A stretch of 64,000 nucleotides of DNA from Psammoneis japonica. Its lineage: Eukaryota. Every line of letters starts with the position of its first letter. The first letter of the stretch is position 1. Both the position numbers and the translations under genes were made by a program. Location: contig QPGO01000002.1 of assembly GCA_008632985.1 (NCBI GenBank), positions 496,001 to 560,000 on the forward strand, read 5' to 3'. The notes beneath the pieces were generated by a model. The model was given only the letters and a program-made list of their open reading frames with translations, was not told the origin of the DNA and made no database searches. Positions 42,412 to 64,000 of this stretch are shown here, one piece after another.

Positions 42412-42899
42412 TTGGCTCTCCTAGCAACCCTGTGTGTTGTGTTACTTTGTTTTGCTTCACGGGAAAGCTGCTCTCTCTAGAGTACCGTAGCTATGAGAGT
42501 AGAAAGGCGTGCGTACAGTATGGTACAGTACCGGTATGTCGTATTCCGGTATTTATCGTTGCGTTGTCGTATCGTCGCGTCTTCGACACCGTGAATAGCT
42601 TGATGATGCATGGTCGGATGTGCTTTTGGGTGCTGGCTGTCTGCATGCTGGGGGACGTCTTCGGAAGTGAGACTGTCGAAGAAAGTTACGTAGAATTTGT
42701 ACTAAAACAGTCTGTCAATCAGTGCGATTGGGTATTTGGGACCTCTGGACAGATCCTACGTGTTTTCTTGCGCGTACAAAATGTACTGGGAAAACCCCCA
42801 AACGCACTGGCGATCAGACCGCCTTCGACGATCTCACTTCCAAAGACGCCCCCCAATGCGCTGCGTGTGGGGTGTAAAAAGAGGGCACTGCTGGCCCCC

Positions 42900-45800
42900 T
42901 GCAAAGCAGCCTCTTTCAGCACAGTTTGTGGGGCAACAAGCGGTGGCAGCAGCAGCACATCAAAGCTCTGGTGGTGTGAAATGCTGAGAGAAGCAACACC
43001 AAGTTGTGCAAGACTGCATGTTTCATGTGGAAGGATGCCAGCAAGTGCAAAAAGTGCGGCAGCATGCTCTCAGTGGAAAAGGGCAAGATCAAGCCAACAA
43101 GCTGTGTGAGTGGTGAGCAGAAGACAGCGCACAAGCACAAAGCAACTGTCGCAAAAAAACAAAGTCCAACAATAAGGTCCATGCCACAGAGAAAGCAGTT
43201 GACACTGAGCAACCTGCCTGCTCAAGCCAATGCCAAGCTGGAGACCAAGCTCAAGGACTTAAAAAGGCCGGGCATGAAACCCACAGGAACGCAAGAGGCT
43301 TGTGCAGGTGCCCAGTTTTGGGCACAAGGCTTGCAAAAAACCTCCAGCTGAGGAACAAATGGCTGCACCCATGCACAGGAGCAGGGTCCAGTCTGAGGGC
43401 AATTGGGCGGCGACAGAATGTCCAGCAGCACTGTGAAAATTGTGCAAACATTCTGCGCGAGCTTGAGCCCTGCATGACAATGGCCACTTTTGGTGCCATG
43501 TGGCTTCTGCGCCACCCCTTCATGCAAGTTGTGCCAATTTTGCACAGTGTCACTCCAGCTGGGTCATGTTTGTTTGTGCAGAACTTGAGCAGCCAACTGC
43601 GGGCGTGGTGCAAAGGGCCAGCATGCTTTCAGTGCAGCATGCTTTGGCATGATTTGCTGCACCCCATCCAGAATTGCATGCTGCAGCTGCTCCTGTGATG
43701 AGATCAGTCAAGCAATGGAAGCAACCAAGCCAGAGCATTGCTTGGACTTCTTGTACACAAAAGCGCCACATTCACAAACTTGAAGCACCGTGGCTGGCAC
43801 ATCTGGAATTTGTCCTGAGGTCAGTTGCCCTTTTTGTCACAGGTTTCAATTGTGTGAGCCAAAATTTTCCTCTTGTCATTTGATGAGCAGATCAGTTTCT
43901 GCTTTCTGTTGTGCTCATGCCACCACCTGGCACAATGGTCAATGGACAAAATTGAAAAATTCTGCTCTCACAGCATGTTCTTGTTTCTCCTTCACAGAAA
44001 GGACACATGAAACATTTGACAAAAAAGTGAACTTTTTGCAGCCAGAGCTTGCCCACTTGTTGAAGTTTCTTTTCAGAGTTGTTGGAAAAACATGTCACTT
44101 GGCCCATGTTGTCAGCCACAAGTGTTTGTTTTGCCTCACATTTTTTGAAGTGTCTGTGCAATCCATTGGCCATTCTCTCTAAAGTCTGCAGCCAACTCTG
44201 GGTGGTTGAGGGATCCTGTCTCGCAGAGCCTGTTGACTTCATGGCACACAACTGCTTCTCATGTGGTGGATTTTTTGCTCCACTTTCTGAAGAGCATTTA
44301 ATCAAGCAACATCTCTTGCTCAAGCAAAGGCATGCACAGCTGCTGTTGCTGTGCATTGCATCTGGGCCTTTTGTCTGACATGCCATCTTGGTCACAGTTG
44401 CTGCATGCTTGCACTCACATTGAAGCACCAGCAAATTTTCTAGGAGAAATGATGTGTGCACTGCAGAGCCAATGTTTTGCATCACAGAACATCAGCACTG
44501 GCTCTAGCTGGGCCACTCAATGGCCTTTCCAGGAATGTCTTGTCCAGCCCACATCCCCCAGCAATGTCAAAAATGCACCAGCAGGAGTGTCTCAGACTTT
44601 TTCATGTGACCCCCTTTCTGCTTCAGCCATTTGGTGCATGTGCACAAGCTGTTGCAGTCACGCAATTTGCTGCCACATTGGCCGTTGCAAATTTTTGAAC
44701 ACAACATTGTGCCTCACAACAGCTGGCTTCAATGTCTCTCCAGTTGGTCATGAAATGCAGCATCTGCAGCATTTTCATCAAGTGGACTGAATTTTAGAAT
44801 TCTTGTCATCTTGTGTGTGCTGGCATGTGCTGCAAGGTTGTGGTGCACATCACTGCCATCGTTGAGCAGCAAAAGTTCTGAAAAATGCTTGTGGTGTACA
44901 TTTTCAACTGCACGAGGAGCAATGTCCTGCAACCACTTGGTGAATGGCACAGAGAACCAGCAGAGAGCAAGCAATGCTGGCATTCTGTGGTGCTGGCATG
45001 GCCAGCCAACTGAGAAGCATCTGCACATGCACGGGGCAACGTTGCTGCAACACCTGCACAGGAATGGGGTCCAAGCACTCAGACAGTGACAGATGAGTCC
45101 AGCACCATGGGAGTTGCAAGAACATTCTGTGCACAACTCACAGCCATGCATGAGGCAGCAAAACCACATTTGATGCTTCCTGTGCAAATCCATCCCCTCA
45201 CACAAGATGCGCCAATTGCGGGTGAACATCTGGGTCATGACTTGCCTGTGTGAAACTCCTGTGGGCAATGGCAGGCTTGCAAGGTGCTTTCACATGATCA
45301 GCTGCCCCTGCTGGTGGGTGCCAGCCTGCAGATGCAGGACGGCAGCCTTGCTGTGCAATCCAGGGTTGCTCGCTGCACAGTGGCACAAGATTGTCATTGT
45401 CCAAACCAACTGGCACTGCACACAATTGTTCAGGCAAACAACTCTTGGCAAACACCCATCCACTCCAACTCATCAGCTGGAGCTGCTGCTGATGACATGG
45501 CCAGCAATGATCTGGGCTTGTGTTTTGATGCTTGTGGTGCCACTGGCACCAATTTTGTCGTGCACACCAAGCAGCACAAACTTTTGAAAGATGCACCAAT
45601 CTGCACAGCTGCCACTGCATGGGGTGTGGGTTGACCCAAAGTCAGGTCAAGAACCTCTCACCTGCTGTGCCAGCCCACAAGACCACTTTAAAGCCAGGTG
45701 AAATTTTGCTCTGGTGCCCCAGCCAACTGTGTCCAAATGGTTTGAGGCTGTTCTGTGCCAGTTTGACAAGAGCAGTGCTCCTCACTCATCCACTCTCTTC

Positions 45801-46700
45801 CCCAGCTCAAAAGTCACAACCCTGCTGCTGCTGCTGCAACCAGAGGGAGTTTACCAGCTGGCATTTGAATTTGACAAACCTGCTCATGTGGATTTGGACA
45901 ATCTGTCATCATGACTGGAGCTGACATTGCTGCCAAAGTGGGAGCCCTTGTTGATGCTTCTTTTCTGCAAAAGGAAGGAGATGTCCAAAGTGATGGTGGC
46001 ATGGAATGAGGAGGATGGTTGCACCCCAGAACAGATCAGGGAAGGCAAGAACCCAAATGTGGTTGGCTGTCAAAAGAAAAAATGTCATTTGGGTGGAAGA
46101 AAATGGCCACCAACTTCAAAATGAAAAAGCCAAACAGGTCTTGTCACTTGACTGCGACACAGAGTCAGGAGCCTCCATCATGGGCAATGACAAGAATTTC
46201 ACAGCCAGTGTGGTGTGGAAATGGTGGAACAGACACAGGTGCGTGCCGACCTTGTGGTGGCTTGGGACAAAACCTGGATGCCCATGGAGCGCGGTCAATG
46301 AGATTGCAATGCTGTTTGTCCAATGGATTTATCCGGTCAGTTGCCCGGCAGTTGGAGGCACGATGTTTGAAGAAGTTGCGAGAGGCACACGATGCATCCA
46401 GTTTCCAAGAGCATCTCTTGACGATCGCCTGGACAGGATGTGCGATGCAGAAGCTGACATGCCATTAGAACCAGAATAGATGTGCCAAGCTCAGCCGTGC
46501 CTGAACTTCGCCTCTAATCCCGTCAGCATCAAATTGTCTCCTCCCCTTCAGCACCGACATGGAGGTTGAAGGCCTTCTCTTCTTTCCCTGTCCTCATGGG
46601 GTTTGGTCGATTCCGACTGCTAAACCGCCTGTGCATTGATTGGGCTTCTCATGGGCTTTAGAACTGACTGGTTGGAGAGCGGACGTGTGCCTCCAACGAA
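42900..46700. repeat. Decayed TE remnants, TpA- and CpG-depleted
   Basis: About 12 TpA in 42900-46340, junk Cys/His-rich ORFs. Family not identifiable. Confidence 0.6.
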
Positions 46701-47038
46701 ATTAAAGTGAGTGTGACCGCATTTCCAGACCTTGACGGGGAATGAGAGGAGCTCGGTCAAATCGGATGAAAAGCAACAGGTCAACGCATCGCAGGGTGTC
46801 TGGGATGACCAGTCCCATCCAAATGAGGCATGTGCCGTGCCTTGACCAATTCATCCCGTAACCACTGCAGATTTTCTCGATGCCATTGACGCGTTTCTGT
46901 TTTGCTGACAAATTTCGAAGCTCTTTGCCGCCGTCCGTTTGGGAGAATGACAAAGCGTAGTCATTCATTGGCATTTTGGCATGCACGACGGCATCCGATC
47001 ACAGCGATGTTCCCAACATACGGACACACCGCAAAAAT

Positions 47039-47990
47039 CTAGCGCGTGCATCTCCAGCAAATCTCGTTCTGTGCATGCGAGCCATCCAGGCTGCTCCGAT
47101 GCACTTCTTGATTTCCTGCCTCGGGCATTGTGCATCTCCGACCTGCATGCGTGCTCTCAGCAAACTCAACAGCGACATCCCGTGCTTGGCATGCCTGAAA
47201 CGAAGCTACCACCAACCCCCATGTGGCAATAACCAGCACAGACACGCACCCTGCAAACGCGTCAGACTTGCAAATTCCTCCTGTTTCCACTGTCTTCCCA
47301 AACACGTCCACTCGGAGCATCTCACGCTCCCATGCCAAGGGAACTGTCCCCGTCCAAATTGCGAGCGTCACCGCATCAACAAGCAAGAGAGCGACCAACG
47401 GCGCCATTGGGTTTGTGAAATGTTTTGTTTGTCTGCCATGTCATGCTGAATGACGCAGAAAAGGCAAGAGCAAAACCAAGGATGAACAGCTAAGGTGTGC
47501 TTTGACATGCAAGGTCACAACCAGCTTTGCTCTCAATTTTGTCATCGAAACTCAAAGGAAGGACACATGCAAGATTGCGCAACCGAAACATTGCATGAGC
47601 CCTGTCTTCACTTTATGTGGCAAAACACAGACGGCTGTTGCATCATACAGCACCGCATGTGAAAAGCAAGAAAATGGACTGTGACGCCTTGACGACTCTG
47701 CCCATTCTGCAGCGGGTGGTCCAGACCCCGAATGCAATGAGAAAGAAGAATTATGATGGCGGAAAGGGTAAAGCCAAGGCCACGCAGCACCCCGTTCAGG
47801 CAGCTGTAATCCACCTGGACCTTTGGCAGAGGCGGAGACATGTTGGTTGTTCCATCGCAGTAAACACATGGGGCCAAACTACGCCACGTTCCCATCTCGA
47901 ATGATGTCTGCCCGACAGCATCAAACATGACATTTTCGGTTTCAGTGTCTTTTTGGCAATGAAGTTGAGCAACTGGTAGCATGCGTGGTC
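47039..47990 (-). pseudogene. Class C (GABA-B-like, 7tm_3) GPCR fragment
   Basis: LAIWTGTVPLAWERE..VETGGICKS..QACQARDVAVEFAES and LRGLGFTLSAIIILLS, broken by frameshifts and stops. Confidence 0.65.
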
Positions 47991-48559
47991 AAATCAAGAA
48001 TCCCTGTTGTCGGGTCAATGGAAAGGACCCTCAGCACCCACAAACCTTTGCATTGACAGGATGCTCTTAATGGGAGACGCCGTCAAAGTGAGTGACGGTG
48101 TCTGATGCAGCACAAGCAGCCAATCCCATGGAGATTGTGGAATCATGCAGAAAGATCCCCAGATCTGGAGACTTGAACATTCTTTCGACTGAAAGCTGAT
48201 CTCCACGTGATCGGGATGGTTCTGGAGCTCTTACATTCGAAACCAATGCATCTAGCGCACGAGTTCCTGGCATCCTGGCTGGACAAAGAGCGTGGAACTT
48301 GTTCCACGAGCCACTTGCAGGATGTAGGCATCTGAGAAAAATCCAGACACAGTCAGTTCCAGCAATCCCCTGGCGACAGCAAACCAAGAGTGTCAGGTGG
48401 TTTACCGGTGGCAGCTTCTAAGAGAGAGATTCCGCCTGGAACGTCGCAGCAAGTGTTGCCCCATGGTTGTGTGTGTGGTGGTTTGTGTGGTTTGCCTCGT
48501 ACAGTGCTGCACTGCACAAAGTGCGAAACAGCGATCAACATTGTGCAAAAAACATGTCT

Positions 48560-48805
48560 CTCCTCGCACTCAAGTTTAGATGGAGACGGACTGACTCAAA
48601 CCGACCTCGCTCGATGACTGTGACCTCTCGCTGGATCCGCGACGGAAGTGGGGCACTTCCGACTCAAGATGACTCGGTCTAGTCTTCTGACTGTGACCGG
48701 TCAAACTTCGGTTTTCTTTTCTCTCACTTTTCCAGCTTTGTTGGAACAGGAACCCTGATCATCGTGACTGGATCACTCAAGCTCGGAAAAGCATTCTTCT
48801 TTTTA
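48560..48805 (+). repeat. Split direct repeat A1 (246 bp)
   Basis: Aligns ungapped to 57006-57251 with differences at 4 sites. Confidence 0.95.
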
Positions 48806-48817
48806 GTCTCCCTCATC

Positions 48818-51282
48818 ATGTCGGATTTCTTCGCCTCGGGTATCTCGGATGATGCGTTCGTTGATTTAGCTCGTCAACTGGAGTCGGATGTTGTCTCGCC
48901 TTTCTCGTCGAGCTCTCCGGCGGCTCCCTCTCCTCAGGCTCGCCCCTCTGGGGCTGCGCGTCAGGGGGGGGGTCACGAGGGCTTAAATCCTCGAGGCACA
49001 AGCGATGACATTTCGGGGGGTTGTGGTCATCCCCAGTCGGACATTGACAGGGCAGAGTTGGGGGAAGTCATTTCCCACCCTCCAGGAACTCACGTTTTGG
49101 AAGGAGACGCATCCCGCCCGGTTCAGAGGGAAACCCGCTCGTCTCGGGTTGGTTTCTTTGGGCGGGATTTGTCAGGTGACATCGGAGGCACGGTCGAGTC
49201 GGAGAGGGAAGGTGCGTCTTCTTCATCCTCGCATGTGCCTCGTCATTGAATCACCTGGCTGGAGGCTGTTGGGGCACCCCGGTGCTTGGGGATCAAGGGC
49301 GGGGAGGAGCCACCTTCTGTCTCAAGAAGGCAAGCGAGTGCAATGTGAGGCACAAGGGTGGCAAGATGAGCATTCCGGCGTCGGGTGTGGCAGTGATCCT
49401 CAAGTCCCCGGACACGGGTTTTTGTCAACCCATCCTAAGCGGTGGGAACATGTCTGGTGGATTGTTGGTCAAGTGGGAAGCCGAGTCGGATGCGCCAGCC
49501 GGTTGGCGGCAGAAATTCTTGGTGCTGGGCAATGGTGAACCTTTTTCCACCAAGGACGAGGTCGAACCCGCCCTGAGGGAGTGTGAAAGGGCGGCCGAGT
49601 TCAAGACACTGGCTCGGAAGCAGTGGCCGGAACCGTCAACCCTTCAAGAGGATGCCGTGCTGGAGGGGTTCACGCCATGCGAGAAACGAATGCTCTCCAC
49701 CCCGGCGCAGTTCCCAGCGGCAAACAAAAGTCCGTCCGCGTTGGCCCGTGTGGTCCAGTCGACCGAGGATGGGTTGAGGCAAGCCGGGGAAGTGCTGGCC
49801 GACTTTGGCGACAAAGCTGGCAGGCGATTCCACGCTGCGGAGTCTGTGATTGAGATTCTGAGCCGGAAGCTGGATCAGCTCGACGCGTCTGTCGGGGAAC
49901 CGACCCAGGGGTTTGATGGGGCTCTTCTTGCCCCTGCTCTTTGGGGTGCGCTGGCAAACGTTGCATCCCGGGAAGCCGGAACCCAATCTCCGGGCCCAGT
50001 CGAGCATGTCACACAAGTGGAGACGGGGTGGCGAAGCCAATCTAACAATCTGGTGAGAACTTTCAACGAGAAGTTCCAACACATGCAAGATCGGATGGGA
50101 TCGACGGCTGGCCGCACGGATCTGGAAAACCTGAAGAACAATGTGCTTCGGGTGTGCACACAGCTCACTTCAAAGGTCAGGTCAATCAAGCCCCAGTTTG
50201 GTTCGGGGTTTGCACCTCACGGCGCTTCATTCGATCAAGGGTCCGTGGAAGCAAGGGTCACACGCCTAGACCGCGCTGTGAGTGAGTTACGTGCAAAGTC
50301 AGACAAGTCTGCCATTGAGTTCTCAGGGGTTGGCGCATCATCCTACGAGGAGTGTCAAGCCTGGATGACACAGCCTTTCCCCTCGAGGGCATGCGGGTGC
50401 TCAACTGATGTCGTCTTGCTCTTGGACCGAATTAAGGGGATCGAGCCCACCGCTCTGCATCACTTTTTGTCTCAGTGGGCCAAGCGAATGAGTGCGAACA
50501 TCGCTGCCGAGGAAGACGCGTGAACTCTGGCGGGTTTCCAGTGTCGCATGCCTCGGATCTTCGACTCAGGATCTGTGAAGTCGTCTCAGACCTTGGGTTT
50601 GCACCCCTCTCACTTGGACAAAATCGAGACCCACGAACACTGGTCTTCGGGGAATGTCGGAACAAAGCACTTCATCGAGGGGAAGATCGCCACAATGGAG
50701 AGCGACATCATGGAAGACATTGGCCAACGCATCAGACCGGGAACATTTGAAAGTCAGGTGGTCCGGGACGCATTGTCGAAATCGGTGGCATTTCTTCGGG
50801 CGCTAATTCAGTTTATGGACTCTACTTGTGCATCACTCACCGACCTGAGCAAGTTCTCCAAGAAGCAAGCGTGGTCCTTGATGACTAAATTGACTCACCG
50901 CATTTTCGAGGACATCCACAAGGCGCGCTCCGGGGTTTTTACCTCCATTTCCGGGACGGACCCAGATGCAGTGTGCAGCAAGATTTTGTGGGCGGTGTTT
51001 TGGACCCACGATGTTGTGGCAGAGCACACCTCTCTAGGATTTACCGACCACCCTTCTATGGCGTCGGAACACGTCAAGTTTCTGGCCACAAACTCGGGAT
51101 TCGAGGTGGCAACTGATTTGCAATCTTCGGTGCTGACGCTAACGGAGAAAGCCAAGAATGCCAGCTCAGAGGCTGAGTCAGCCCAGGCCCGAGGCGACTC
51201 GGCGCACGTCGAGCTGGGCAAATTGCGAACGGAAATTAAGGACCTGACTCGTCGGCTCAAGGCTTTGGAGAGCAAGAAGTGA
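48818..51282 (+). pseudogene. ORF1 (gag-like) of the YR retrotransposon, disrupted
   Basis: ATG 13 bp after A1. A frameshift before 49246 and an in-frame TGA at 50521-50523. Cys/His knuckle-like FCLKKASECNVRH and C-terminal coiled coil. Confidence 0.7.
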
Positions 51283-51354
51283 AATTCATGGGGAACGGAG
51301 GATGCGGGGGAGGGCCAGGTCTCGTTCGACAGGCCGAATAACCTGAGGCACATC

Positions 51355-54300
51355 ATGCGGGGCAGAAAGGCCTTCTGTTTTCAAGGATCTTGCTTGATTC
51401 TCGCCTCCGGTCCCCCAATCTGGCTCTTGTCCTTGCGACCAAAGGAATGGCCTGCTGTTTGTCACTGCTGCGACGACTCCCACTGGGGTTCTCCATCAGT
51501 GGAACTGTTTCGGAACCAATTGAATGCCTCCTTGGCACGGGTCTCATGGGCAAGGGTTGAACAACTGACCAGGCGGGTTGATGTTGTGTTCGTGTCGGGG
51601 CCACCTTCGTTCCTTGAGTCCGCAGCTCATGCAATGCGGTCGGGATCTTTGATCATGATCCCTGTGGGAGCGTTTTCGCGTCGCAGTCTTCTGGGTTTGA
51701 ACCAGCTACAGCGGCGGGACATTGCACATGCGGTGGTGGGCGGTGTCACTTCCTTTCGGACTGCACTCTTCTGGCGGGGGGTTCCTGCTCCGGTCTTTGA
51801 TGGAGGCCTGCGGCGGTCCATTGGGCACATCATCGACTGTGAGCCACCCGGGTCACCATCGCCACAACACCCGAGTGGGGAATTTTACAATGAGGGCGAC
51901 CATCTCAACCCACAGTTTCTGACCCGACCAGTCGTGCACCCATCGCATCGGTCGCCGACAGGTTGGGTCACCCGCACACTGTCTGTGGATGAGACATTGG
52001 CGGCCTGGGATTTTCGTTTCCGCACGCCTCAGGTGCATCAGGCTTTCGAGCGGGGATTTCCTCTTGTTCCGTTGAATCTCCTCACACTTTTTGTGGAGGC
52101 ATTTGTTGATCACACGCCCCGGAATTCGTCACAACCTGGGGGCGTGGTGTGTGACAACACGGAGGTCGGGGTCCCGGTCTGCCAGGCCAGAACGTGGCTG
52201 CCGACTCTCGGACGCTGCTTACCCCACACTTGGATCGACGCACCCCTCACAACGGCGAAAGCTGCAAAGGGGGATGCGGCAGCCCCTCCTTTCCGGTTGT
52301 GGGATAAGAGGATCACTTTGATTTTCCCGGGGTCTGGCGAGGCTTTGCCAGCCCTTCGGGACTTGGCGCACCGGTGGTGGCGGCGAAAGACCCTTCAGTC
52401 TTTTCTGGGCTATCTGCGCCGGGAGCATGGTCCGACTTGGGTCGCCATGCTGGCGACACAACGCCGACGTTTTGGGGATGCCACTGGCGTCTTCAGGGGG
52501 GGGTTTGCCGCCACCCTCCACTCCCACGCTTGCTTCTAGACGCACACCTTGGGACTGAGGTGTTGGCGCAAGTGTTGGACAGCTCCTGGTGGAGTTGGGA
52601 CCGAGGTTCGTCTCTTTTGTTCTGGCAGTGGCCCACTCTGGAACAGCGGGTGGGGGCTCGAGATGGGATCCAGACATTTGTCAAGGGCCCTCTCCCTCGC
52701 AATCGCCGACGGCAGAGAATCCGGGGGTCCGAGCACGAGATTCTTAGGATGGTGGACAAGATTCAAAAGGTCCGAGACCAAGGTTACATCCATTGTGGGA
52801 GGGTGGTTAGTCTAACTGATTGTTTTTGGGTCCCAAAAACCGTCCGTGTGGAACCCCAGAATGGTCGCTTGGTGGAAATCGTTGAAGACGTGCGAATGGT
52901 TTACAACGGAACCTCCTCGGGTTTAAACGACGCCCTCTGGGCACCCTCATTTTTCTTGCCCACTCCTGCGTTGGTTCTGGGGTGCATGACTCGTGCCACC
53001 TTTTCAGTGGATCTCGACCCAGGCGACATGTTTTTAAACTTCTTCATGGATCCCAACATTCGGCCACATGCGGGGATCGACTTAACGCCTCTCAAGCCAC
53101 ATCTCGGGTCCCAGGAGTCGATCTCGACGGGCACGCCCTGGTTCGAGCGTTGGAACCGTTTGTTTGTGGGGATGCGGCCCAGCCCTTGCTTGGCGGTGAG
53201 GGCATTTTGTTGGGCCGATGAGATTGCCAGAGGCGATCCAAACCGACTCTCCAATGTCATGGGATACGACAAGCTGCTCCTAAACTCACCAGGGGATCCC
53301 AACTTCCAGACGGAGAAACCGTTCGTGATGAAGTGGAATTCTCGTCGCAAGGAAATTGCTGGCGACATAAAAACATTCGTTGATGACTTGTGCGGAATGG
53401 GGGCTAATGAGGAATCCGCCTGGCAAGTTGCTCACCAAATGGCCTCGCGGTTGCAGTGTCTTGGACTGCAGAATGCTGCCCGGAAGGTGCGCCCCCCCTC
53501 GCAGGTTGAGACCGGAGCCTGGGCTGGCGCCATTTTCCGAGTTATCGATGGGGATGTCACTCAGTCAGTTTCCCAGGCCAAATGGGATAAAGCCAAGGGT
53601 GTCATTGCAGAACTGCTTGGTTTTTACGCCGGGCGTCCGGGGGGCTTCCTCCCTGCATTTGACTTTGAGGATCTGGAGCGGAAGAGGGGATTTCCAGTCC
53701 ACCTTGCGATGACTTGCCCCTTTTTAACACCATTCCTTGGAGGAATCCATTTGACCCTCGACTCCTGGCGACCAAATCGAAAGAAGGATGGTTGGGCGAT
53801 GACTGCGAAAGAATTCGCAAGCTGGATTCACCACCTCGCTGAGAAGCAGGGCCTTGACCCGTCAGAGGTTGCTGAGGGGCTAAGGGATCAACCGCCCCCT
53901 CCGCAGGTCACGGCTGTCCCTCGTTTGTTCATGGATTTAACTGCCATGTCCCGCGTCACGGAGTCTCCGACCCCTTCTGCGGTCATCATCCAGTCCTCAA
54001 AAATTGTCACTGTCCTCTGTGGCTTTGGGGATGCATCTGGAAAAGGCCTTGGGACCTCCCTGGAAGCAGCGGACGGAACCATTGTCTTTTGGGTCGGTGT
54101 GTGGGGCGATGATGATCTGGGGAACTCCTCCAACTGGAAAGAGTTGTCCAACACGGTGGACGCCATCCAAGAACTTGGGGAGCAGGGGGAATTGACCGGT
54201 GCGTGTTTGTTCTTTTTTGTGGACAACTCAGTTGCTGAAATGGCTTGGTGCAAGGGCACCTCGACCAGCCCTCTGCTGCTTGAGCAGGTCATTTGCTTGA

Positions 54301-55223
54301 AATCTTTGGAGGCCAAGCATGGGATTGGGCTGTGTCTCACACATGTCTCGGGGGTGCAGATGACAGCTCAGGGCACTGACGGAGTGTCCAGGGGAGTCTT
54401 GACCGAGGGTGTCATGAACGGAGCCAAGATGCTTTCGTTTGTCCCTCTCCATCTCGGAGCCACAACTCGGTCGGCTGCTCTCTTTGCGTGGGTTCAATCT
54501 TGGGCTGGGACTCCAGCTCCGGAACTGCTGACCCCCTTGGATTGGCATCGGAAGGGTCATGACATTGCGGGGTGGAGCTGCCCAGCCTGCAAAGCTGTCG
54601 AAATGCCCCATTTCAGATTGGGCACGTGGGTCTGGGCTCCACCTCCAGCCGCGGCGAGAGCGGCTCTAGAAGAGCTCCGGATTGCAAGAATCAAGCGCCA
54701 GACATCGTTCCACACATTCATCTGCCCGCGTTTGATGACTCCAGAGTGGCAGAAACAGTCGCACAAGGCGGCGGACCCAGTGTTTGCTGTCCCGGCTGGA
54801 TCAAGGCCATTCTGGCCAGGTGACATGTTCGAGCCCTTGCCAGTTGGCCTTCTTTTTCCGTTCGTCTCCTGCAGCCCTTGGCAGCTTCGGGGAACCCCGA
54901 AAATGTGTGCAATGGAGCGGTCCCTGCGTCGAGTGTGGCCGGATGCTACGGTGGACGAAAGGAATGTTTTGCGCAAATTTTGTGCACAGTGCAGGAATCT
55001 GGCCGGCATGTCGGAAGGCATGGTGTCCAGGGTGCCATGCTTCGAGAGAAAGCGTGACTTTCCATCTGGGGGGGACTCTGGAGGACGACCCTCAAAACGA
55101 CAACGCGCAATCTCTCGGGGGGGACCGCCCAAGGCTGGACGACAATGCTTGGTGTCGGAAGCCTCAAGACAAAAACAAGTTTGTACGGGCTCGCATGGGA
55201 GATCATCCAATGGTTGCCTTTGA
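51355..55223 (+). pseudogene. ORF2: reverse transcriptase and RNase H, frameshift at the G-run near 52496-52503
   Basis: FWVPK, DVRMVYNGTSSGLN, DLDPGDMFLNF, GMRPSP, TFVDDL; RNase H GFGDASGKG, SSNWKEL, FVDNS, DGVSRG. Confidence 0.88.
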
Positions 55224-56442
55224 GTGCGACACCTGTGCATTTCACAAGCTCTGCCAGAGGGAGGCCCTGCCTTCATCACCTCGAGACGAGGTCGCTCTAG
55301 CGTGCATTCGAAGAGTGATTTTGGACGCGTTTTGGAGCAGGGAATCGACAACAGTCGAAGCAAACGCGTCGAGAGTTGGGAGGGGCCTAGCCTTGTCTGA
55401 GCGCCTGGGCCCAATGGGGCCTTACCTCGAGCCGGGCCCTCTCCCACCCTGTGATCACTGTGGATGTGAAGTCGCCATGCAGATCGTCTTGGCTTCGACG
55501 GCGGCGGGAAAACACTCGGAATCGTACACTCAGTTTGACACGATCCGAAAATTGCGCACTGCTTGCTCCAACCAGGTGCGCGCATCGGCGGAGGCTAATT
55601 CGCGAGCTTTGGCATTGGGGGATTTGGAAGGCAAACAGTGTCTGCGCATGTGCGAAGACCCGTGTGCTTCACTGTGGTTCCAGCGATTCATGACCGGATG
55701 CAAAAGACGGATGGGCCAAGACTGGAGGCCTGACAGAGCGATGTCGGTCGACGTCATGCAACATCTGTTGCCTCGGGTCGAGGAGAGGGCCCTCCGAGCC
55801 CCAGGAGAGGCGGAGAGATTTATTTGCCTTGCACGCGGATTGCATTTTGCGGCCAGTTACGTCTTGTCTCTTCGAGGTCCCGAAGGCCTGCTCATGGACT
55901 TGGGGGCTCTTGTCAGACACCTCCCAAGACACGCGGGTTATGTTGTCGTCCCTCTTTTGGGCCGAGTCAAGGGAGAGCATGGGGAGCGGCAGCACCTCCT
56001 CCCCAGTGTCAATGTCACCAGCTCAGGTGTCAACCTTCGTTTTTGGGTCGAAACGGTGGTCTCATTGCACTGGGATCATCGGCGCACGTGTGGACCAGCG
56101 ACATCAAACATGGCGGGAAAGGTCTTGTCTACGAAAGAGCTCAACGTTTTCTTGCATGAAGTCTTGGGAGACATTTGTGAGGACCACCCAAGCCCATTCG
56201 CAGCGGACATCACCACATTCTCTGACATGCAGGACAAGTGTGATGTGAGTCGTTCGTTCAGACGGGGTTCGGACTCGCGTGCTGTTGCTCAGAAGGTGTC
56301 GGAAGATGACATTGACGTTGTCAACCGTTGGAAGAAGAAGGAAAGATCAGGTGCGGCACGACCCACACACAAAATGCGCCAGCACTGTGCCGACATTACC
56401 CTTCTTTTGCCATCATTCCTGCGTTGTGCTGAGGCCATGTGA
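54946..56442 (+). pseudogene. ORF3: tyrosine recombinase overlapping the 3' end of ORF2; presumed catalytic Tyr reads Cys
   Basis: LSLRGPEG (first Arg), LLGRVKGE, SRSFRRGS (HxxR box equivalent), NRW, and MRQHCAD at the expected nucleophile position. Start uncertain. Confidence 0.85.
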
Positions 56443-56555
56443 CTTGGGACGGTCGCGAGCCCTTGGCAATGCTGGGCCTCCGGAGGACAGTCTTCCAGCT
56501 TCCTGCTCTCCGGATCGACATTTTTGGTGGCCACTGCCCAGGATTCTCATCGGGG

Positions 56556-57008
56556 GGGATCAGAGCTCGACCCGTCTCATTCGGCCTCGGGAGTCAATGA
56601 GACGAGGTCTAGGACTGCAACGCAGCACAACACCTTCGACGGCTCCAGTTTTCGTGTGGGAAAACTTGGTCTGGCGTGTCTTCGTTCGAGGTGCTCACTT
56701 TGCCCCCTGGTCACTGCCCAACGTCGCGAAATGCCGAAGGGTGTGCTGCTGGGGGTTGGCTCTCGGAAACGCCCGAGGCACTGGTGCTCCGTTGAATTTC
56801 CGGAAGAGCCCCTGCACTGGCACAGGACCCTGCGGAGGGTTTGGGTTTCTCCCACCCCCCCTTGTACGGAGCAGAGCTTGTGCCGAAAGCCCTGCTCTGT
56901 GAGTCTCCTGAGTGTCTTGAGGTTTTGTTGCTTCTTGGTGGTTCTTGACTGGGATCAATTGAGATCTGGTCCGAAGCGATCGTTTGCTGAGTCAATGCTC
57001 GGATCCTC
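56556..57008 (+). repeat. Split direct repeat B1 (453 bp)
   Basis: Aligns to 57269-57724; the length difference comes from a C-run of 7 versus 10. Confidence 0.95.
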
Positions 57009-57251
57009 CTCGCACTCAAGTTTAGATGGAGACGGACTGACTCAAACCGACCTCGCTCGATGACTGTGACCTCTCGCTGGATCCGCGACGGAAGCAGGGT
57101 GCTTCCGACTCAAGATGACTCGGTCCAGTCTTCTGACTGTGACCGGTCAAACTTCGGTTTTCTTTTCTCTCACTTTTCCAGCTTTGTTGGAACAGGAACC
57201 CTGATCATCGTGACTGGACCACTCAAGCTCGGAAAAGCATTCTTCTTTTTA
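57006..57251 (+). repeat. Split direct repeat A2
   Basis: Copy of 48560-48805; overlaps B1 by CTC. Confidence 0.95.
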
Positions 57252-57268
57252 CCCACCCACCACACCCT

Positions 57269-57724
57269 GGGATTGGAGCTCGACCCGTCTCACTCGGCCT
57301 CGGGAGTCAATGAGACGAGGTCCAGGACTGCAACGCAGCACAACACCTTCGACGGCTCCAGTTTTCGTACGGGAAAACTTGGTCTGGTGTGTCTTCGTTC
57401 GAGGTGCTCACTTTACCCCCTGGTCACTGCCCAACGTCGCGAAATGCCGAAGGGTGTGCCACCAGGGGTTGGCTCTCGGAAACGCCCGAGGCACTGGTGC
57501 TCCGTTGAATTTCCGGAAGAGCCCCTGCACTGGTGCAGGACCCTGCGGAGGGTTTGGGTTTCTCCCACCCCCCCCCCTTGTGCGGAGCAGAGCTTGTGCC
57601 GAAAGCCCTGCTCTGTGAGTCTCCTGAGCATCTTAAGGTTTTGTCACTTCTCAGTGGTTCTTGACTGGGGTCAATTGAGATCTAGTCCGAAGCGATCGTT
57701 TGCTGAGTCAACACTCGGATCCTC
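57269..57724 (+). repeat. Split direct repeat B2 (456 bp)
   Basis: Copy of 56556-57008; ends GGATCCTC. Confidence 0.95.
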
Positions 57725-58558
57725 AACAGCCCCACAATGAACACAAACAACTGTCATGCGCGCATCAATGGAAAGCATGACACAGATTGCAGCAATTGCC
57801 TCGCACAACTTTTGGCGAATTCGTCAGGAGAAACACGACAAGCAAACAAAAAAAGCGATGTGCCATGGCGCTGATGATTGTGCTGGCGGTGTTCTGAGTT
57901 TCGATTCGAGATGATTTCTTGGATCAAACCCAGTGCCGGTTTAAATTGTGTCAAAACCAACTTGTCACTTCGCAGACACGATTCCCTGCACGCGAAAATC
58001 TGAAAGCTGCAAGCACGCACTTTCCCACGCACTTTCTTCGTCTCACAATCGCAGTTCTGGCAAGAAAGTAAAGCACCGCATCAACAACATCACCATGTTG
58101 CACGCTTTCCTCTTCTTGAACGCTTTGTTTTCTCATTGGCAACTGTGGCCGAGCCATCTCTTGCCTGCGCAGGGATCCCAAAGAGTTCCCGGTGGGCGCG
58201 GTGCTCTGCTTCGTCTTGTGTTGCTTGTTGAGGAACATTGACGTCTGGATCGTCGTCCGAACCTTTGTGGTTGCATTTCTCATCTGGCTCCACACGATCC
58301 TTGCTGCGGCACTGCCCAAGCAGACAAGGTGGAATTGTTCTGAATTTAACCAGCCTCCCCACGTTCGTCGCAGCCACTTTGTGGAGGCGCAACGCAAGAC
58401 GCATCGTTACGACGTCAATGAGCCATTTGCATCGCAAGTTTTTGTTGCTCTTGTTGCACTGCCTTTTATTGTGACGCTCATTTCTAACGTCACCTTCTTT
58501 CTTTGACATTCCATTTCTTGCGTTCAGCTCTGCCAACGGCACTGGTTCCAACAGTGGA

Positions 58559-59347
58559 GTGGCTCACGAGCCGTCTTCAAACTACAACCCCCCACCCTCC
58601 GTCGATTTTAAAGAAAAAGACAACGTCAAAGCTTCATCCCCCAAGCCGAGCCTTCCAAAGTGCCGCTGCAACGTCAAACCAGAAAAAGACAACGTCCAAG
58701 CTTCACCTGTCAAGCCGAGCCCTCCAAAGCATCAGCACAGAGTCGGTGAGAGAGTTTTGCACACGAACAGCAACACCAACGACGTCGCTTCTGCCAAGAT
58801 CATCAGCATTCACCGCGACGACAAAACTCCATGCTACACTGTCCTCTTCTCTAATGACAGAGAGAGGCAGACGGTTGAAAAGAATCTATCGCCCATCCCA
58901 AAAACACCAACGTCAGAAAAAGACGACATCGAAGCATCGCCTCACAAGCCGAGCCCTCCAAAGCACCAGCACAAAGTCGGCGAGAACGTCAAGCACACGA
59001 ATGGCAACACCAACGACGTCGCTTCTGCCAAGATCATTGGCATTCACCTTGACGACAAAACTCCGTGCTGCACTGTCCTCTTCTCCAACGGCAGAGAGCG
59101 ACAGACAGAAGAAAAGAATCTGTCTCCCGCCCCCAAAAAACCGACATCCAAGTACGAGAAGGGCCAACACGTGCATTGCTGCCGCAACAACACTCGTGTG
59201 TTGGCCAATGTTCTCAGGGTTTACTTTGATGATGATCTCGTGGCGCATTGCGACATTAAATGTATGGATGGGAGCGAGAGGCAGACGATTGACAAGCACC
59301 TGGAGGAACATCCGGCTCCCGAGTTGTGGGGAGTGCGACGAGGCTGA
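58559..59347 (+). pseudogene. Decayed gene with three tandem SH3/Tudor-like modules
   Basis: Two closely related ~190-bp units (about 58710-58895 and 58945-59130; VGE.V.HT..AKII.IH.DDKTPC[Y/C]TVLFSN.RERQT) and a third diverged unit. Confidence 0.55.
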
Positions 59348-60837
59348 GTTTTTTGCCATTGCGGGTGGAGAAGATCGTCTGTGATTGTACATCTTATTTT
59401 TTCGTTCAGGCCTGCATTGTCGTGAAGACGTGTTGGGCAGAAATTGTTTCAGATGTCAGCTTGTGGTGCGTTTTTCACTTGTCATTTTGGTGCTTGTTTA
59501 ACTGCAGCAGCAAAGTTGGAAGAGGCTTTCCAGATCTCGCATTCAGGCACGGCCGCCGTTTTGGAACTGGTTTTGTGTGCCAGCAGAAGAGAATGCAAGA
59601 TCCAGTTCGCCTCTGAAAGCTGATGTTGAACAGCAGCAACACTTGTTCCAATTTTCAAGTCGAAAACCATTGCAGGACTGGCGGAATCCAATGAGAAAAC
59701 GAGAAACAAACATCAGACGGGCTTTTTGCGTGCAAGGTAGAAGCTCACGGCTTGTTGGGTTTAGCATGGTGGGCATGGGGCATGGGAGTGGGGCTGGGGC
59801 TCGAGAGGGATTGGTCAGCGCACTGTAGAGTGTTGGGCCCACAGATCAAGATTGTGAAAACAAAACAAAAATTAGAAAACGCGTTGCAATCAGAACATCT
59901 CTTTCGCGCTTTTGAAAACTCGCTTTCACATCGTCCCACTTGCAATCATCCGACAACAGTGCAAGTGAGGCAATTGAGACCATTGTTGAGTGCCAGGTTG
60001 TTGGTTGAGAGCGTCCACTTTGTCCAAAGATTACCACACAGGTTGCGACCATCAGCATTGAGCATCTCATGTGCCGCACGAATCCACCAGGCCCGTTTCA
60101 GGCTTGGTCGGCAATCTCAAGGGCGATCTCCATCAGAATGTCAAGGATCTTTGCATCGTTCAGGACCCGACAAAGGAAAAAAAGCATCCCAAGCAGCTCG
60201 CGGCCAGCTGCAAATCATTTGGTGCCGAGGAGGACGCGTCCGTGAAGGTGTTGCTTGCATCGGATCGGCTGTCACTGCACACCTCACTCGATGCTTTGCC
60301 GACGCCTGTCCATTGGCGCCTTGTGCTGATGCCATGGACGACACAGGCTGTGCCTCAGAACGGCAAGACACACGTGCAGGACTTGGTTGTCATCACCGAT
60401 GATGCCCGTCGTCTGTTGCGCGAGCGTCGCAGATGTTCTTTCTGTGTCTTGATGCGCCACAATTGTTCAGGTGGAGGCGAACATGATGGCTTCTTGTCGC
60501 TGTCTGTGCCGGTTTGTGGCTGCATCGGAGTTGAAGCAGTTTCCGACTTGGAAATAAAGTTTGCAAAGTGCTTGGACCATTTGGCACTGAACAAAAGACG
60601 AGCAGCGTGCAACAACAAATTGGCACATGCGTCCGTTCAACAAAAAGCATTGAATAAAAACAATGACACACACCCTTCGCCAAGCATGCGCACTGTCTGG
60701 AATGGGATCAATTGTTTCACAAATTCGCCTCAGCCAATCGTGTTCACAACCGTGAGGCAGCACAGACAATCCGAGGAACAGTTCTGCCGCCACGCGTCCC
60801 AAGGACCACATGTCAACAGCGGAATCGCATGGCAGCC

Positions 60838-61140
60838 GTAGAGTGGAAGAACTTCCGGGCTGCGGTAAAATCGAATTTGAACGTAGCTGTGAGCCGTGTT
60901 TCCTTCACAGCAAGCCGAACCGAAAGCAATTAACTTGACATTGCTCGAATGAGACTGCTTCTCGGTCAGCAAGACATTCTCAGGCTTCAGATTGCAATGA
61001 ACAAATGATCGCCAACACAATTCCTTCACGCCGTCCACTGTTTTCACGAGCAACGGCCGAACCTTTGTCAAGGGCGACCCTCTTAACTGCCGATGATTCA
61101 AAACCCCAACAAATTCAAACACCAAGCAAAGGTGATTCTG
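60838..61140 (-). pseudogene. DYRK/YAK1-type kinase fragment
   Basis: HLCLVFE, VHCNLKPENVLL, VKLIAFGSAC, SYVQIRFYRSPEVL. The catalytic Asp residues are lost. Confidence 0.75.
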
Positions 61141-61799
61141 ATGCGGACTGTACGATTGCAGGTGCACTGTCTTGCGGTTTTCGCTTGAACGTCAATGGCC
61201 AAGAAATCCTTGTCTTTGCTCAGTGCCAAAGACATTGATCTCCACAGCTGCTTGTTGTGCACAAGCTTGACCATTCTTCACCACTTTCAGGGCCACAAAG
61301 ACCACCATGACAAACAGGGAGTGAGTTGAGATGCGTGTGTGCCAGCAGTGGCACGGCTCTCTAAGCCACAAACGTGCCGTTCCACCGCCCAGTAGACTGG
61401 TTCCTTGCGCAAGGCGTCTGTGTGCTTTTCGTGCACCAACAAGTGATCAGGAGCCACGCGCTAATTTTTTATTACAAAAACAGAGGTGGAAATGAGTTCC
61501 ACAGCAGCAATTCAAAGTCAACAGGAACAGCATTTTCAAATTCCAAAACTCCATTTACATGACGTTTGTCCCACATAAAAAGTTTTGCACCAAATGATGC
61601 GTTCCTCGGCTCAATCTTTATAAGAGAGAAAAGAGCAGTTGGCAAGATTAGTGCGTTGTGTGATTCCTCCACTTTCACGCGCAACATGCAGCATGCTTGC
61701 CCTTCCAACTTCCAACACGTTCCGATCCGGTAAACAAAATGGTTCATCATTCCTTTTACAAGAGCATCTCTGTTTTCTTCCACGCCGCCTTGAACAACT

Positions 61800-62281
61800 G
61801 CTTAAAATGAAGAAGAGGGAAAATGGGAAGCGTCAGAAGAACGAGCTCTTCCACAAGACATGCAACACACACACACAAGCATCTGCCAGGGGGTGCATGC
61901 ACACACCTTGCAATGCTCCCGGATCAAAATGGTGTGTCACCAATTCTTGCAGGAGCGTCAAGAGCGCCCGACCGTCTCTCCTCCCAAAGTCGGTCCGACA
62001 TCTTTCAGCTCTTGAATCTCCACCACACTTTTGCACATGCGAGGAAAGGCGCTTCTGGCAATAACAGCAGCACCGGAAGCACCAAAAAACCAAATGAAAA
62101 AGGATGTCCGGGAGGCTTCCAAAGCCTCGGAAACGATTGGGGCAGCGGTGGTTCCATCCGGAATTGCTTCAAGCCGCGACTTTGTGAAAGCAATTCGTGG
62201 GACTCCATTGTCACTCGGACAAAAGGAGTGAACCATGCAGGTCACGATCAGCACAACAAGAAACGTGAGAAGGCGCCTCAT
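61800..62281 (-). pseudogene. Fragment of a plastid-targeted protein gene
   Basis: Signal peptide plus HS-F cleavage motif (MRRLLTFLVVLIVTCMVHSF), then FFIWFFGASG..ARSAFPRM..GPTLGGET; the frame breaks near 61960. Confidence 0.45.
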
Positions 62282-62365
62282 GGTGAACGGGACGGACAGC
62301 GCACTGCACAGCTGAACAAATTACCCCGCAGTCGCTTGCTAGAGAGTGAAGTTATAGAAAATCAT

Positions 62366-64000
62366 TGTGACATCGTGCCACTGTTTCTAAGATTGTTGTG
62401 AAGATTGTCAAATCATCAAGACAGTCATTGTGACCCGCCGCTACAAAGACTTACGTCTTCAGTGCAAACGTCACTCGGGAAACTAGGAGAGCAGACGAAG
62501 AGCGTCTCCTCTCCTCACAATTTTCTCTTTAGCAGCTGTAACACTGGCACCTAGAATCGCCCCATGTCCATTGTGATGTCAACATGCTCTGTCTGTTGTC
62601 CATTCTCTGGATGTCACAACACGCTTCCTCTGCGCTAAAGAAGAAAATCATGTCGGACGTTTCAAGTGCATCATCGTCCTCAACGTCCGATGAGGACATT
62701 CCGTTCGCCCTTGCTCCAGCTCAAGCTGTTACGGGAGCAGTTGACTTTCGCAAGAGTGCTGGACGAAAGCTGTTCGAAAATGGCTCGGAAGCATCAAGTG
62801 GAGATGCACTCGACTGCACTCCAGGCGAACTCTTTTTCAGTTCCTCAAGAGTGTTGAAACCAGGGCCAGCCTGCTCGGATGGAATGACCCGACGACAGGC
62901 ATTCTTGTGATACCTGAAGACCCTGAAGATCCGGACACGACGCACTCAAACTTGCTCACTGACTGTGGTGAGATCAGCATGGAACGCATCAAGAGACACG
63001 AGGAGTCGCACATCAGGAATCCATGCCGTGCAGCTCAAGATGCTGCCATGCTCGGACACTGTCTGACCAACTCAATCTCCAAGGCTGGGAAGGACAAGGC
63101 ATGCATCCACGATGCATCCCACAAGATCGGAGACAAGATCTCTGGATGTTTGCTCCTCAAGGTCATCATTCAAGAGTCGCACCTAGACATGAATGCAACC
63201 ACGAGCACGATCCGCACGAAACTCGCTGAGCTTGACCAATGCTTGCCGACGATCGGTCACGACATCACGAAGTTCAATCAGTGCGTGGCTCTCCTTCTCG
63301 CTGTGCTAAGGTCTCGTGGCGAAACCACAGAGGATCTCCTGACGAATTTGTTCAAAGGACACCTCGCTGCTTCGGATGAGAACTTTGCCAAGTGCATTGG
63401 CAACAAGCAAGAGGAACACGAGGACGGCAAGGACATCATGCCAAATCACCTCATGACGCTTGTGGACAACAAGTGCAAGAATTTGGTTCAGAAGAAGAAG
63501 TGGAGTGCGCCTGGCAAGGAAGAAGAGAAGACACTTGCTCTGGAAGCCAAAGTCGAAGGCATTGAGAAAAGAGCCAAGAAGCACGAATCTGCTGAGAACA
63601 CCAGAAAGGACGACAAGCGTGGGAAAGGAAAGGATGGTGACAAGCGAAACATGCCCAAATGGATGAAGGACAACTTGCGCCCAACCAAGGATGTGATCTC
63701 CAAGCCTGGGCACTGGAACGGTGTAAAACACTGCCACTGCCACAAGGACGTCGGAGGGAAATGCCCTGGAAAGTGGCGCAAGCACACTCCGGAGAATTGT
63801 TCACATGATCCGGATAAGAACAAGAAGAGAGCGGCCAATGGCAAGAGCGGAAACGAACGGGAGAAGAAGTTCTGCCGCAAACAAGACAGCAAACGACGTC
63901 TCAAGCTTACGAAGGCATACGAGGCAGTGGTCGACAAGGAGCCATCGGACGACGAATCCGAATGACTCCTAGAGCACGGCCACAGTTGCAACTGCTGTGA
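62366..64000 (+). mobile_element. 5' part of a Ty1/copia-like (CoDi-type) LTR retrotransposon, continuing beyond the window
   Basis: Candidate LTR 62366-62543 (TGTGACA...TGTAACA) followed by a PBS-like cTGGCACC, then gag. The second LTR is not visible. Confidence 0.65.
62650..63965 (+). pseudogene. CoDi-type gag, frameshift at the T-run near 62835
   Basis: FALAPAQA, DCTPGELF|QFL..RA..LGW, CLTNSIS, LLLKVII, DITKFNQ, NLFKG and the zinc-knuckle-like CH...GGKC.GKWRKH.PENC. Confidence 0.75.

Follow-up and report, generated by a model that had tools for sequence, protein, structure and literature searches.

Evidence for a TpA-directed mutational process acting on mobile DNA in the diatom Psammoneis japonica

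Why should the paired repeats of a single transposon insertion, taken to be identical when the element entered the chromosome, now differ mainly by exchanges among TA, TG and CA? The question is raised by a 64,000-nucleotide stretch of the genome of the diatom Psammoneis japonica (GenBank assembly GCA_008632985.1, contig QPGO01000002.1, positions 496,001 to 560,000 of the forward strand; herein referred to as the window and numbered from its first letter), which carries a putative tyrosine-recombinase retrotransposon laid out as A1, a series of open reading frames (ORFs), and then B1 A2 B2 (table 1). The answer that we favor, with a probability of roughly 0.8, is that a real, DNA-level process directed at TpA acts on mobile DNA in this diatom genome. 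Such a host process would turn TpA into TpG or CpA (an A:T to G:C change at the self-complementary TA step), with mobile-element DNA inserted in the chromosome as its target and the adjoining genes spared.

Global alignment of A1 with A2 and of B1 with B2 yields 22 events in total. Ten are adjacent TG/CA flips, in which one copy reads TG where the other reads CA (two in A, eight in B); seven set TA against TG or CA (one in A, six in B), and the rest comprise two sites of CG versus TG and three other transitions, all three of which, if read as A/T to G/C changes, are A to G in N-A-T (two of them within GATC). When the letters are reduced to purines and pyrimidines, the repeat match is uninterrupted over 56556–56863 and 48558–48805, so that every repeat difference in those stretches is a transition. 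Roughly 32 mismatched columns among about 700 would be expected to produce one adjacent pair by chance; ten are seen, and all are TG/CA flips. The dinucleotides common to both copies number 2 TA and 15 CG in the A pair and 0 TA and 27 CG in the B pair, such that 42 CpG are shared over both pairs and only 2 TpA.

The sequence-only reading of this locus, which had arrived by eye at the same division of the 22 differences (reproduced exactly by the alignment) and had noted that B1 and B2 hold dozens of CpG in common and no TpA (also confirmed), took the reciprocal TG/CA pairs to be ancestral TA steps hit on opposite strands, making about 17 of the 22 differences TpA events. That polarity is supported, and four lines of evidence agree on TA as the ancestral state at TG/CA sites; hit statistics, conserved tyrosine columns that now encode cysteine or histidine, the composition of the element's relatives and a limited view of other copies of the region all bear on the claim. 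If the flips had arisen from CpG, the 42 unhit and 2 singly hit CpG sites would imply a per-copy probability of about 0.02 and hence about 0.02 double hits, against the 10 seen. If they arose from TpA, a single per-copy probability of about 0.7 fits the 2 unhit, 7 singly hit and 10 visibly doubly hit sites.

The tyrosine codons TAT and TAC hold TA; an A to G change yields cysteine (TGT/TGC) and a T to C change yields histidine (CAT/CAC). The protein test of polarity used columns occupied by Tyr in at least 60% of homologs, the protein homologs being 40–50% identical. In pol, 11 columns qualify, and 2 have kept Tyr, 5 are now Cys, 3 Phe and 1 Trp (of the 7 columns with at least 70% Tyr, 2 are kept, 4 are Cys and 1 is Phe). 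Both such columns of the recombinase are now Cys, and its nucleophile column, which is 95% Tyr in the homologs, reads Cys (codon TGT). The ORF of a second mobile element near the right end of the window (62745–63962) has kept Tyr at none of 11 columns, which now hold 5 Cys, 4 His, 1 Trp and 1 Gly. Across the three transposon proteins combined, 16 of 24 conserved Tyr columns have become Cys or His and 2 are kept. Indeed, Tyr makes up 0.2–0.9% of four element ORFs versus 1.9–4.9% of ten host ORFs of the window; pol, at 0.4% (homolog median 2.2%), lies under all 120 homologs listed for it (minimum 1.4%), as does the second element's ORF among its own 120 listed homologs (minimum 0.7%).

Other conserved residues of pol are mostly intact (Trp in 23 of 24 columns, Gly in 39 of 44, Gln in 10 of 10), and conserved Arg is kept in 24 of 33 columns, the remaining nine holding 4 Gln, 2 Cys, 1 His, 1 Trp and 1 Met. 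At codon level, the conserved pol columns contain 61 unambiguous single-step changes (28 further changes are multi-step and 10 ambiguous): 14 are TA to TG/CA, 10 are CG to TG/CA, 24 are transversions, 6 are other A>G/T>C changes and 7 are other C>T/G>A changes. TpA is thus the site of 14 of the 20 polarized A>G/T>C changes in pol, and in the second element's ORF 12 of 26 unambiguous single-step changes are TA to TG/CA.

Related pol loci from metagenomes have an observed-to-expected ratio (O/E) for TA of 0.40–0.78 in 80 of 80 cases, versus 0.16 for this element; judged from these loci, TA poverty is no trait of the element family. The direct repeats of these relatives hold 92 differences and 0 flips, many of the pairs being short identical contig ends that carry no information. 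Five of the metagenome loci (L010, L019, L023, L034 and L060) are strongly CpG-depleted (CG O/E 0.35–0.44) with TA near normal (0.40–0.68), which implies that CpG loss and TpA loss are independent across hosts of the element family. Two recombinase homologs from other public assemblies (P0265 and P0354) are poor in Tyr and rich in Cys and His (0.7% Tyr, 4.4% Cys and 5.0% His in P0265), and a third (P0247) has Cys in the nucleophile column. These Tyr-poor, Cys/His-rich homologs may carry the same footprint in other organisms.

The loss of TA depends on its neighbors. Measured against a family baseline of 470 kb, ATAT survives in 0 of about 31 expected cases, followed by ATAC and ATAG (survival 0.04 each), CTAC (0.10), ATAA (0.14), GTAC (0.18), GTAA (0.27), TTAA (0.34), CTAA (0.36) and CTAG (0.44), and this order is nearly unchanged against the window's own genic DNA. 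Loss is graded by the 3' base (TAT > TAC > TAA/TAG), and a one-parameter 3'-neighbor model (per-strand loss of A, with T >> C > A/G) reproduces most classes, underestimating ATAA and overestimating CTAC. We regard the apparent 3'-base preference as a good lead and not as a measurement, given that baseline and target differ in origin. Strand also appears to matter: under TA ancestry, B1 has 10 TG and 2 CA whereas B2 has 3 TG and 7 CA (Fisher p = 0.027), opposite biases that suggest tracts hit on one strand. Since insertion, 27 of 38 TA site-copies have changed versus 2 of 88 CpG site-copies, with three other changes in about 700 columns; by rough reckoning, and if those three represent background, the TpA process would have run at about 50 times the CpG rate and at a few hundred times (about 500) the background per site.

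A change of TA to TG or CA creates no stop codon, and it removes TAG and TAA. This removal of stops accounts for the many long ORFs that overlap across the element's two strands and for a pol frame that stays open over 949 codons although the copy is dead. Between 48000 and 58500, 17 ORFs of at least 150 codons overlap on both strands, and gene finders would over-call genes in such stop-depleted DNA.

Beyond the repeats, the window falls into three compositional states. Genic DNA has TA O/E of about 0.5–0.7 and CG O/E of about 0.9–1.0. From 46250 to the window end, the DNA is TA-poor (0.11–0.19) and CG-normal (0.7–0.9). Two blocks, 18872–24442 and 42876–46250, have lost both steps (TA 0.04–0.06, CG 0.10–0.17) and have TG and CA at 1.85–2.06, the same ranges of TA, TG and CA being found in the bins 20001–24000 and 44001–46000. 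Within this one 64-kb window, TA O/E is 0.38–0.70 in ten host ORFs versus 0.11–0.17 in the element ORFs, and the element as a whole has TA O/E 0.16, CG O/E 0.79 and a G+C content of about 0.57. The edge at 18871 is sharp, lying at most about 70 bases from a host ORF of normal composition. The sum of the four pyrimidine–purine steps is about equal across the three states, as is expected if TA and CG became TG and CA. In the two blocks, TG roughly equals CA and the two are finely intermixed. We infer that these doubly depleted blocks are old relics on which a slower CpG decay has also run to completion. Neither block contains a recognizable domain, and no repeat partner of either block was found in the window, even in purine/pyrimidine space, where only the known repeats appeared. 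The lasting lack of TA in the blocks suggests that the process needs no similar second copy.

Since insertion, then, about 70% of the TA steps in each repeat copy have been changed, the two B copies being hit mainly on opposite strands to leave reciprocal TG/CA pairs, and conserved Tyr codons in three transposon proteins, including that of the catalytic Tyr of the recombinase, have become Cys or His codons, such that the element was inactivated by missense and not by stops. As the mechanism, we hypothesize that adenine in the DNA is enzymatically deaminated to hypoxanthine, which the next round of replication would read as G, and the enzyme would be a tRNA-adenosine-deaminase-like protein (ADAT2/TadA-type) directed to silenced or foreign chromatin. 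In the anticodon loop, the natural target of tRNA adenosine deaminases is an A that comes after a U, which would explain the 5' T without further assumption. Granted a TpA-directed process, we put the odds on adenine deamination at about even. A slower CpG decay, presumably via 5-methylcytosine, would work on the same DNA, leaving old relics with almost only TG and CA among their pyrimidine–purine steps. The labels "repeat-targeted" and "RIP-like" of the sequence-only reading are not supported as worded; chromatin state or foreign origin would explain what is recognized no less well than repetition.

Further copies of the region offer a view that is independent of the repeat pairs in part. Run X1, the single study found to carry the stretch (share 0.44), no RNA run being listed for it, has 2,019 contigs on 44000–60000, of which 471 are at least 99% alike, and the region is multi-copy because so many contigs lie there. 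Differences among the X1 copies comprise 895 transitions versus 246 transversions (A>G 187, T>C 192, C>T 250, G>A 266; each transversion class 25–38). Our site-level reading covers the 40 best-supported of 1,178 difference rows, 0 of which lie within the A or B repeats. Among those 40 rows, 14 make up 7 TG/CA flips between window and X1, 2 have CG in the window against TG or CA, and 2 have CA in the window against TA. Inside the second doubly depleted block, 3 flips between window and X1 occur among the 9 listed rows at 44275–45041, and flips within such an old block are compatible with a rapid resolution of every newly arising TA or CG to TG or CA.

Several points weigh against the interpretation that we favor. 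The identity of A1 with A2 and of B1 with B2 at insertion is, for this copy, a textbook assumption (PMC4157794). CpG decay acts here too, with 8 of 33 conserved Arg in pol now Gln, Cys, His or Trp, and because it also operates, part of the TG and CA in the ORFs derives from CG; in 6 of the best 40 of the 1,178 rows, all X1 contigs have CG where the window has TG or CA. At position 48233 the window reads TA and 10 X1 contigs read TG, the opposite polarity by parsimony. One diverged X1 copy was legible by eye at two of the repeat sites, and where B1 has TG and B2 has TA it reads TA, which favors TA ancestry weakly. X1 may itself be the data behind the window's assembly. Finally, whether A or T is the base attacked is undecidable from sequence, because TpA is its own complement.

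This last point sustains the rival that survives best, a thymine-side chemistry that we consider unlikely though worth keeping in view. Here the T of TpA would be enzymatically modified in silenced DNA (to a base of the 5-hydroxymethyl- or 5-formyl-uracil type, for example) and would pair wrongly with G, which leads to a T to C change. In some protists, TpA is the preferred location of modified thymines, and oxidized thymines are mutagenic; all of our observations fit T to C with a preference for a 5' purine (R-T-A) as well as they fit A to G in T-A-Y. Nothing seen here, however, points to such a base in diatoms, and adenine deamination is what the only experimental precedent puts forward, likewise as a proposal.

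A second rival, which we hold to be distinctly improbable, places the changes on the element's RNA or complementary DNA during retrotransposition, with the timing of ADAR-like or APOBEC-like editing. The affected sequences with recognizable genes are indeed retroelements, and ADAR prefers U before the edited A (10.64898/2026.01.13.699255). Editing before integration is nevertheless hard to reconcile with repeat copies that differ within one insertion, and in opposite strand senses. Editing of sense RNA would yield TG only, whereas TG- and CA-type changes are both present (9 vs. 5 in pol and 7 vs. 5 in the second ORF), and in the relic blocks TA is missing from both strands while TG and CA occur in roughly equal numbers. 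Moreover, the targets reported for Bigelowiella natans are integrated DNA viruses, hit during vegetative growth (10.64898/2026.01.13.699255).

An artefact of sequencing or assembly, a possibility that the sequence-only reading itself had raised and in which base calling misreads a modified base at TpA (or CpG) so that the consensus settles on TG or CA at random, strikes us as very improbable. The platforms behind the assembly and X1 are not on record, and the seven places at which window and X1 show TG/CA flips among the best 40 of 1,178 rows are what such miscalling might leave. A strand-dependent miscall, however, predicts an equal bias in both B copies, yet these, 700 bases apart on the same molecules, are biased in opposite directions; it also predicts strand-coherent runs, whereas TG and CA are finely intermixed. 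X1 contigs of up to 315 kb at a word depth of about 100 could not be had without accurate reads, and the number matching at 99% or more is 471; flips aside, only two of the best 40 rows, those already mentioned, read TA for a CA of the window, and the loss of TA ends sharply beside normal genes.

CpG decay alone, with ancestral CpG deaminated on opposite strands and the TA sites produced by C to T changes at CpA as in repeat-induced point mutation (RIP), can be dismissed almost entirely: although such decay is real here (CG versus CA/TG makes up 11 of the 37 differences in an older, 234-nt tandem repeat of the window) and a pure C to T model yields the same strand coherence in B1 and B2, it predicts some 0.02 double hits where 10 are seen, the 16 Cys and His in three proteins stem from conserved Tyr and not Arg, and C to T at CpA would increase TA, yet TA O/E is 0.04–0.17 in the affected DNA.

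Two further candidates were rejected. GC-biased gene conversion fails in that, outside TpA, A>G/T>C changes (6) are not above C>T/G>A changes (7) in the conserved pol columns. Selection against TA in the element fails in that catalytic and conserved residues were destroyed, and in that none of the 80 relatives is TA-poor.

How does a TpA-directed process compare with described systems? The closest precedent is the chlorarachniophyte Bigelowiella natans, for which the main text of a preprint reports that 231 of 302 nuclear mutations in mutation-accumulation lines fell in an integrated giant virus and virophage, that nearly every one was an A to G or T to C change, those changes lying on TpA without exception, and that the rate, about 6e-7 per site per generation, was orders of magnitude above background and was reached in some lines only (10.64898/2026.01.13.699255). 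The same source describes genome-wide clusters poor in TpA and rich in CpA and TpG, with reverse-transcriptase and DDE domains enriched among TpA-poor genes, and proposes, without showing it, an ADAT2-like adenine deaminase (10.64898/2026.01.13.699255); in amphioxus, ADAT2 is reported to act as a deaminase on A as well as on C in DNA (PMC10354150). The remark in the sequence-only reading that no described eukaryotic system produces this pattern is therefore outdated. The diatom changes are likewise found at TpA and produce TpG or CpA (17 of the 22 repeat differences and 16 of 24 Tyr columns), the signal is likewise confined to inserted DNA with host genes ordinary, at least in this one 64-kb window, and the window too has TpA-depleted clusters enriched in CpA and TpG. 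The differences are that the host here is a stramenopile and not a rhizarian, that the targets are retrotransposons and unidentifiable relics and not integrated viruses, that depletion is near saturation (TA O/E 0.04–0.17) versus 0.45 in the viral region, and that the process is deduced from sequence here whereas it was measured in mutation-accumulation lines there. The preprint's main text has no mention of a 3' T or C preference, of tracts on opposite strands or of a companion loss of CpG, and the words "trinucleotide", "CpG" and "diatom" have 0 occurrences in it.

In the RIP of ascomycetes, C:G pairs become T:A, chiefly at CpA, and new TpA steps arise (PMC2621366; PMC7296669). The diatom pattern resembles it in the heritable, clustered transitions that cripple chromosomal mobile elements, in strand-biased tracts and in a dinucleotide shift; unlike RIP, which creates TpA and makes stops, the process here destroys TpA, raises G+C, makes no stops and removes TAG and TAA. 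Duplication dependence and a sexual stage define RIP. The decay of 5-methylcytosine also feeds TG and CA and acts in this window (as the Arg changes and CG-poor blocks indicate), but it removes no TpA, turns no Tyr into Cys or His, and is about 50-fold slower in the repeats (2 of 88 vs. 27 of 38 site-copies). The exclusion in the sequence-only reading of RIP, and of 5-methylcytosine decay as the sole cause, stands for the repeat sites, although CpG decay is at work in this DNA as well. ADAR hyperediting acts on double-stranded RNA and would be expected to give A to G in the edited sense only, in contrast to the TG and CA types and the in-place divergence of repeats seen here. In Phaeodactylum, mutation accumulation is reported to single out CG, CC and TG as mutable contexts, with about 6% of the genome methylated (PMC6604790). 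The literature searched yielded no report of TpA-directed hypermutation in diatoms, and the locus would thus appear to be the first diatom case of a kind described in one 2026 preprint, with the detail of motif, strand and CpG loss being new. We advance, as a tentative proposal more doubtful than probable, that diatoms possess a DNA adenine deaminase that descends from the tRNA wobble-adenosine deaminase, is chromatin-directed, reads T-A-Y and permanently disables transposons by missense without stops, and that it belongs to the same ancient system as in Bigelowiella, a defense spread across the stramenopiles, alveolates and rhizarians that would shape a large part of their genomes.

If the process is real, a type of defense so far reported from one chlorarachniophyte also works in diatoms, a group that counts among the most important primary producers and includes several genetically manipulable species. 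The window is a clean natural experiment, in which two initially identical repeat pairs would reveal the target T-A-Y, a one-strand tendency and a rate exceeding that of CpG decay some 50-fold. In such genomes, domain searches will miss transposon genes (Pfam found none of this element's genes), and these genes will look falsely intact, because stops are removed and not created, while old insertions could be recognized by their TA-free, TG/CA-rich blocks. The base-editing field would, if this is true, take an interest in a natural enzyme able to convert A at a short motif of double-stranded chromosomal DNA.

The element itself is recognized from its layout and its last ORF. The order A1...B1 A2 B2 is that of split direct repeats, as in the Ngaro/PAT-type tyrosine-recombinase retrotransposons of the DIRS order, in which A2 is described as identical to A1 and B2 to B1 (PMC4157794); the match of the A repeats stops at 48805, and mismatches on to 48812 mark the repeat edge. 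As in those elements, a putative pol with reverse transcriptase and RNase H is accompanied by a separate tyrosine recombinase ORF; the proteins here differ in being almost invisible to Pfam models, and the copy is dead. The last ORF encodes a tyrosine recombinase: its family alignment varies little or not at all in the Arg, Lys, Arg, Trp and Tyr columns, and the predicted fold of the homolog P0244 (from a 58-sequence alignment; predicted local distance difference test score 90) has Cre, XerH and lambda integrase as its top Foldseek matches, at a probability of 1.00. A Pfam scan of eight recombinase-family proteins gave no match, and a PDB sequence search with the recombinase ORF as query returned 0 matches.

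Homologs of pol are about 1,300 residues long and map to 51331–52470 in one frame and 52530–55199 in another, and because they match in two different frames, this copy has one frameshift in pol. Together with the change of the recombinase nucleophile from Tyr to Cys, the frameshift marks this retrotransposon copy as dead. The pol motifs, assigned by eye, we take to be those of reverse transcriptase and RNase H; a weak, sub-cut-off match to Pfam RVT_1 (E 0.057) occurs in the pol homolog P0123, and a precomputed RVT_1 assignment exists for 2 of the 120 homologs listed. A Pfam scan of six element ORFs gave no match, and lax thresholds brought up only noise in the element proteins besides that sub-threshold RVT_1 match. 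The methyltransferase domain that divides PAT from Ngaro elements likewise found no Pfam match among the element proteins. One X1 contig links position 48541 to 57723 with 17 other letters between, and because it joins these positions, an element-free form of the flanking repeat exists, as an allele or a paralog.

Table 1. Features of the retrotransposon and its surroundings in the window (positions counted from the first letter of the window)
Feature	Position	Strand	Remark
Tyrosine-recombinase retrotransposon (putative), whole	48560..57724	+	Order A1 - ORFs - B1 A2 B2
Repeat A1	48560..48805	+	Paired with A2
Repeat A2	57006..57251	+	Paired with A1
Repeat B1	56556..57008	+	Changed TA sites mainly TG (10 TG, 2 CA)
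Repeat B2	57269..57724	+	Changed TA sites mainly CA (7 CA, 3 TG)
ORF1	49246..50523	+	425 aa, no family match; Tyr 0.2%, TA O/E 0.11
pol, N-terminal portion, frame 1	51331..52470	+	Parted from remaining pol by one frameshift
pol ORF, putative reverse transcriptase and RNase H (P0121)	52374..55223	+	Homologs match 52530–55199
Tyrosine recombinase ORF (P0243)	54784..56442	+	Homology starts at about residue 98
Left flank	46250..48559		Multi-copy in run X1, TA-depleted, CpG retained
Right flank, up to window end	57725..64000		Multi-copy in run X1; TA O/E 0.17–0.19, CG O/E 0.82–0.87
ORF of second, unrelated mobile element, gag-like as a lead	62745..63962	+	Tyr 0.2%, homolog median 3.6%
Block almost devoid of TA and CG	18872..24442		TG and CA about 2x expectation
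Second block almost devoid of TA and CG	42876..46250		From dinucleotide O/E

Elsewhere, the left 42 kb of the window hold ordinary eukaryotic genes, among them a kinase whose best named relatives come from Attheya, Seminavis, Cylindrotheca, Nitzschia and Amphora at 56–68% identity, in keeping with a diatom host. The ORF of the second mobile element is unrelated to ORF1, and hence supplies no outgroup within the window. A Pfam search with 86 ORFs of the TA-poor regions gave a single match above the curated cut-off, a protein-kinase domain fragment at 60733–61191 on the minus strand (Pkinase, E 3e-12), and four sub-cut-off matches that resemble noise. This fragment, which lies in a TA-poor, multi-copy region, looks like a decayed or captured host gene; it has no tblastn match to the intact kinase at 31756–33831, and that pair too offers no outgroup in the window.

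Smaller features of the same kind of DNA deserve brief mention. The two flips in repeat A sit in opposite arms of a small inverted repeat (48644–48660 in A1 and 57090–57106 in A2), whose arms stay perfectly complementary in each copy, with TG...CA in A1 and CA...TG in A2; such complementary flips have a chance of about 1 in 4 and may mean nothing. Three intergenic zones of about 1 kb (5241–6275, 10456–11660 and 15364–16404) contain 0–3 TA each and have reduced CG, and the last of them is strongly pyrimidine-skewed (GC skew -0.30) and may be a different kind of sequence. The 234-nt tandem repeat lies at 58680–59147 in two copies that are 83% alike, and its differences of CG versus CA/TG dominate over TA sites. 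CA is far above TG there (33 vs. 6 in one 250-base bin), and the CpG decay of this repeat seems to be biased to one strand.

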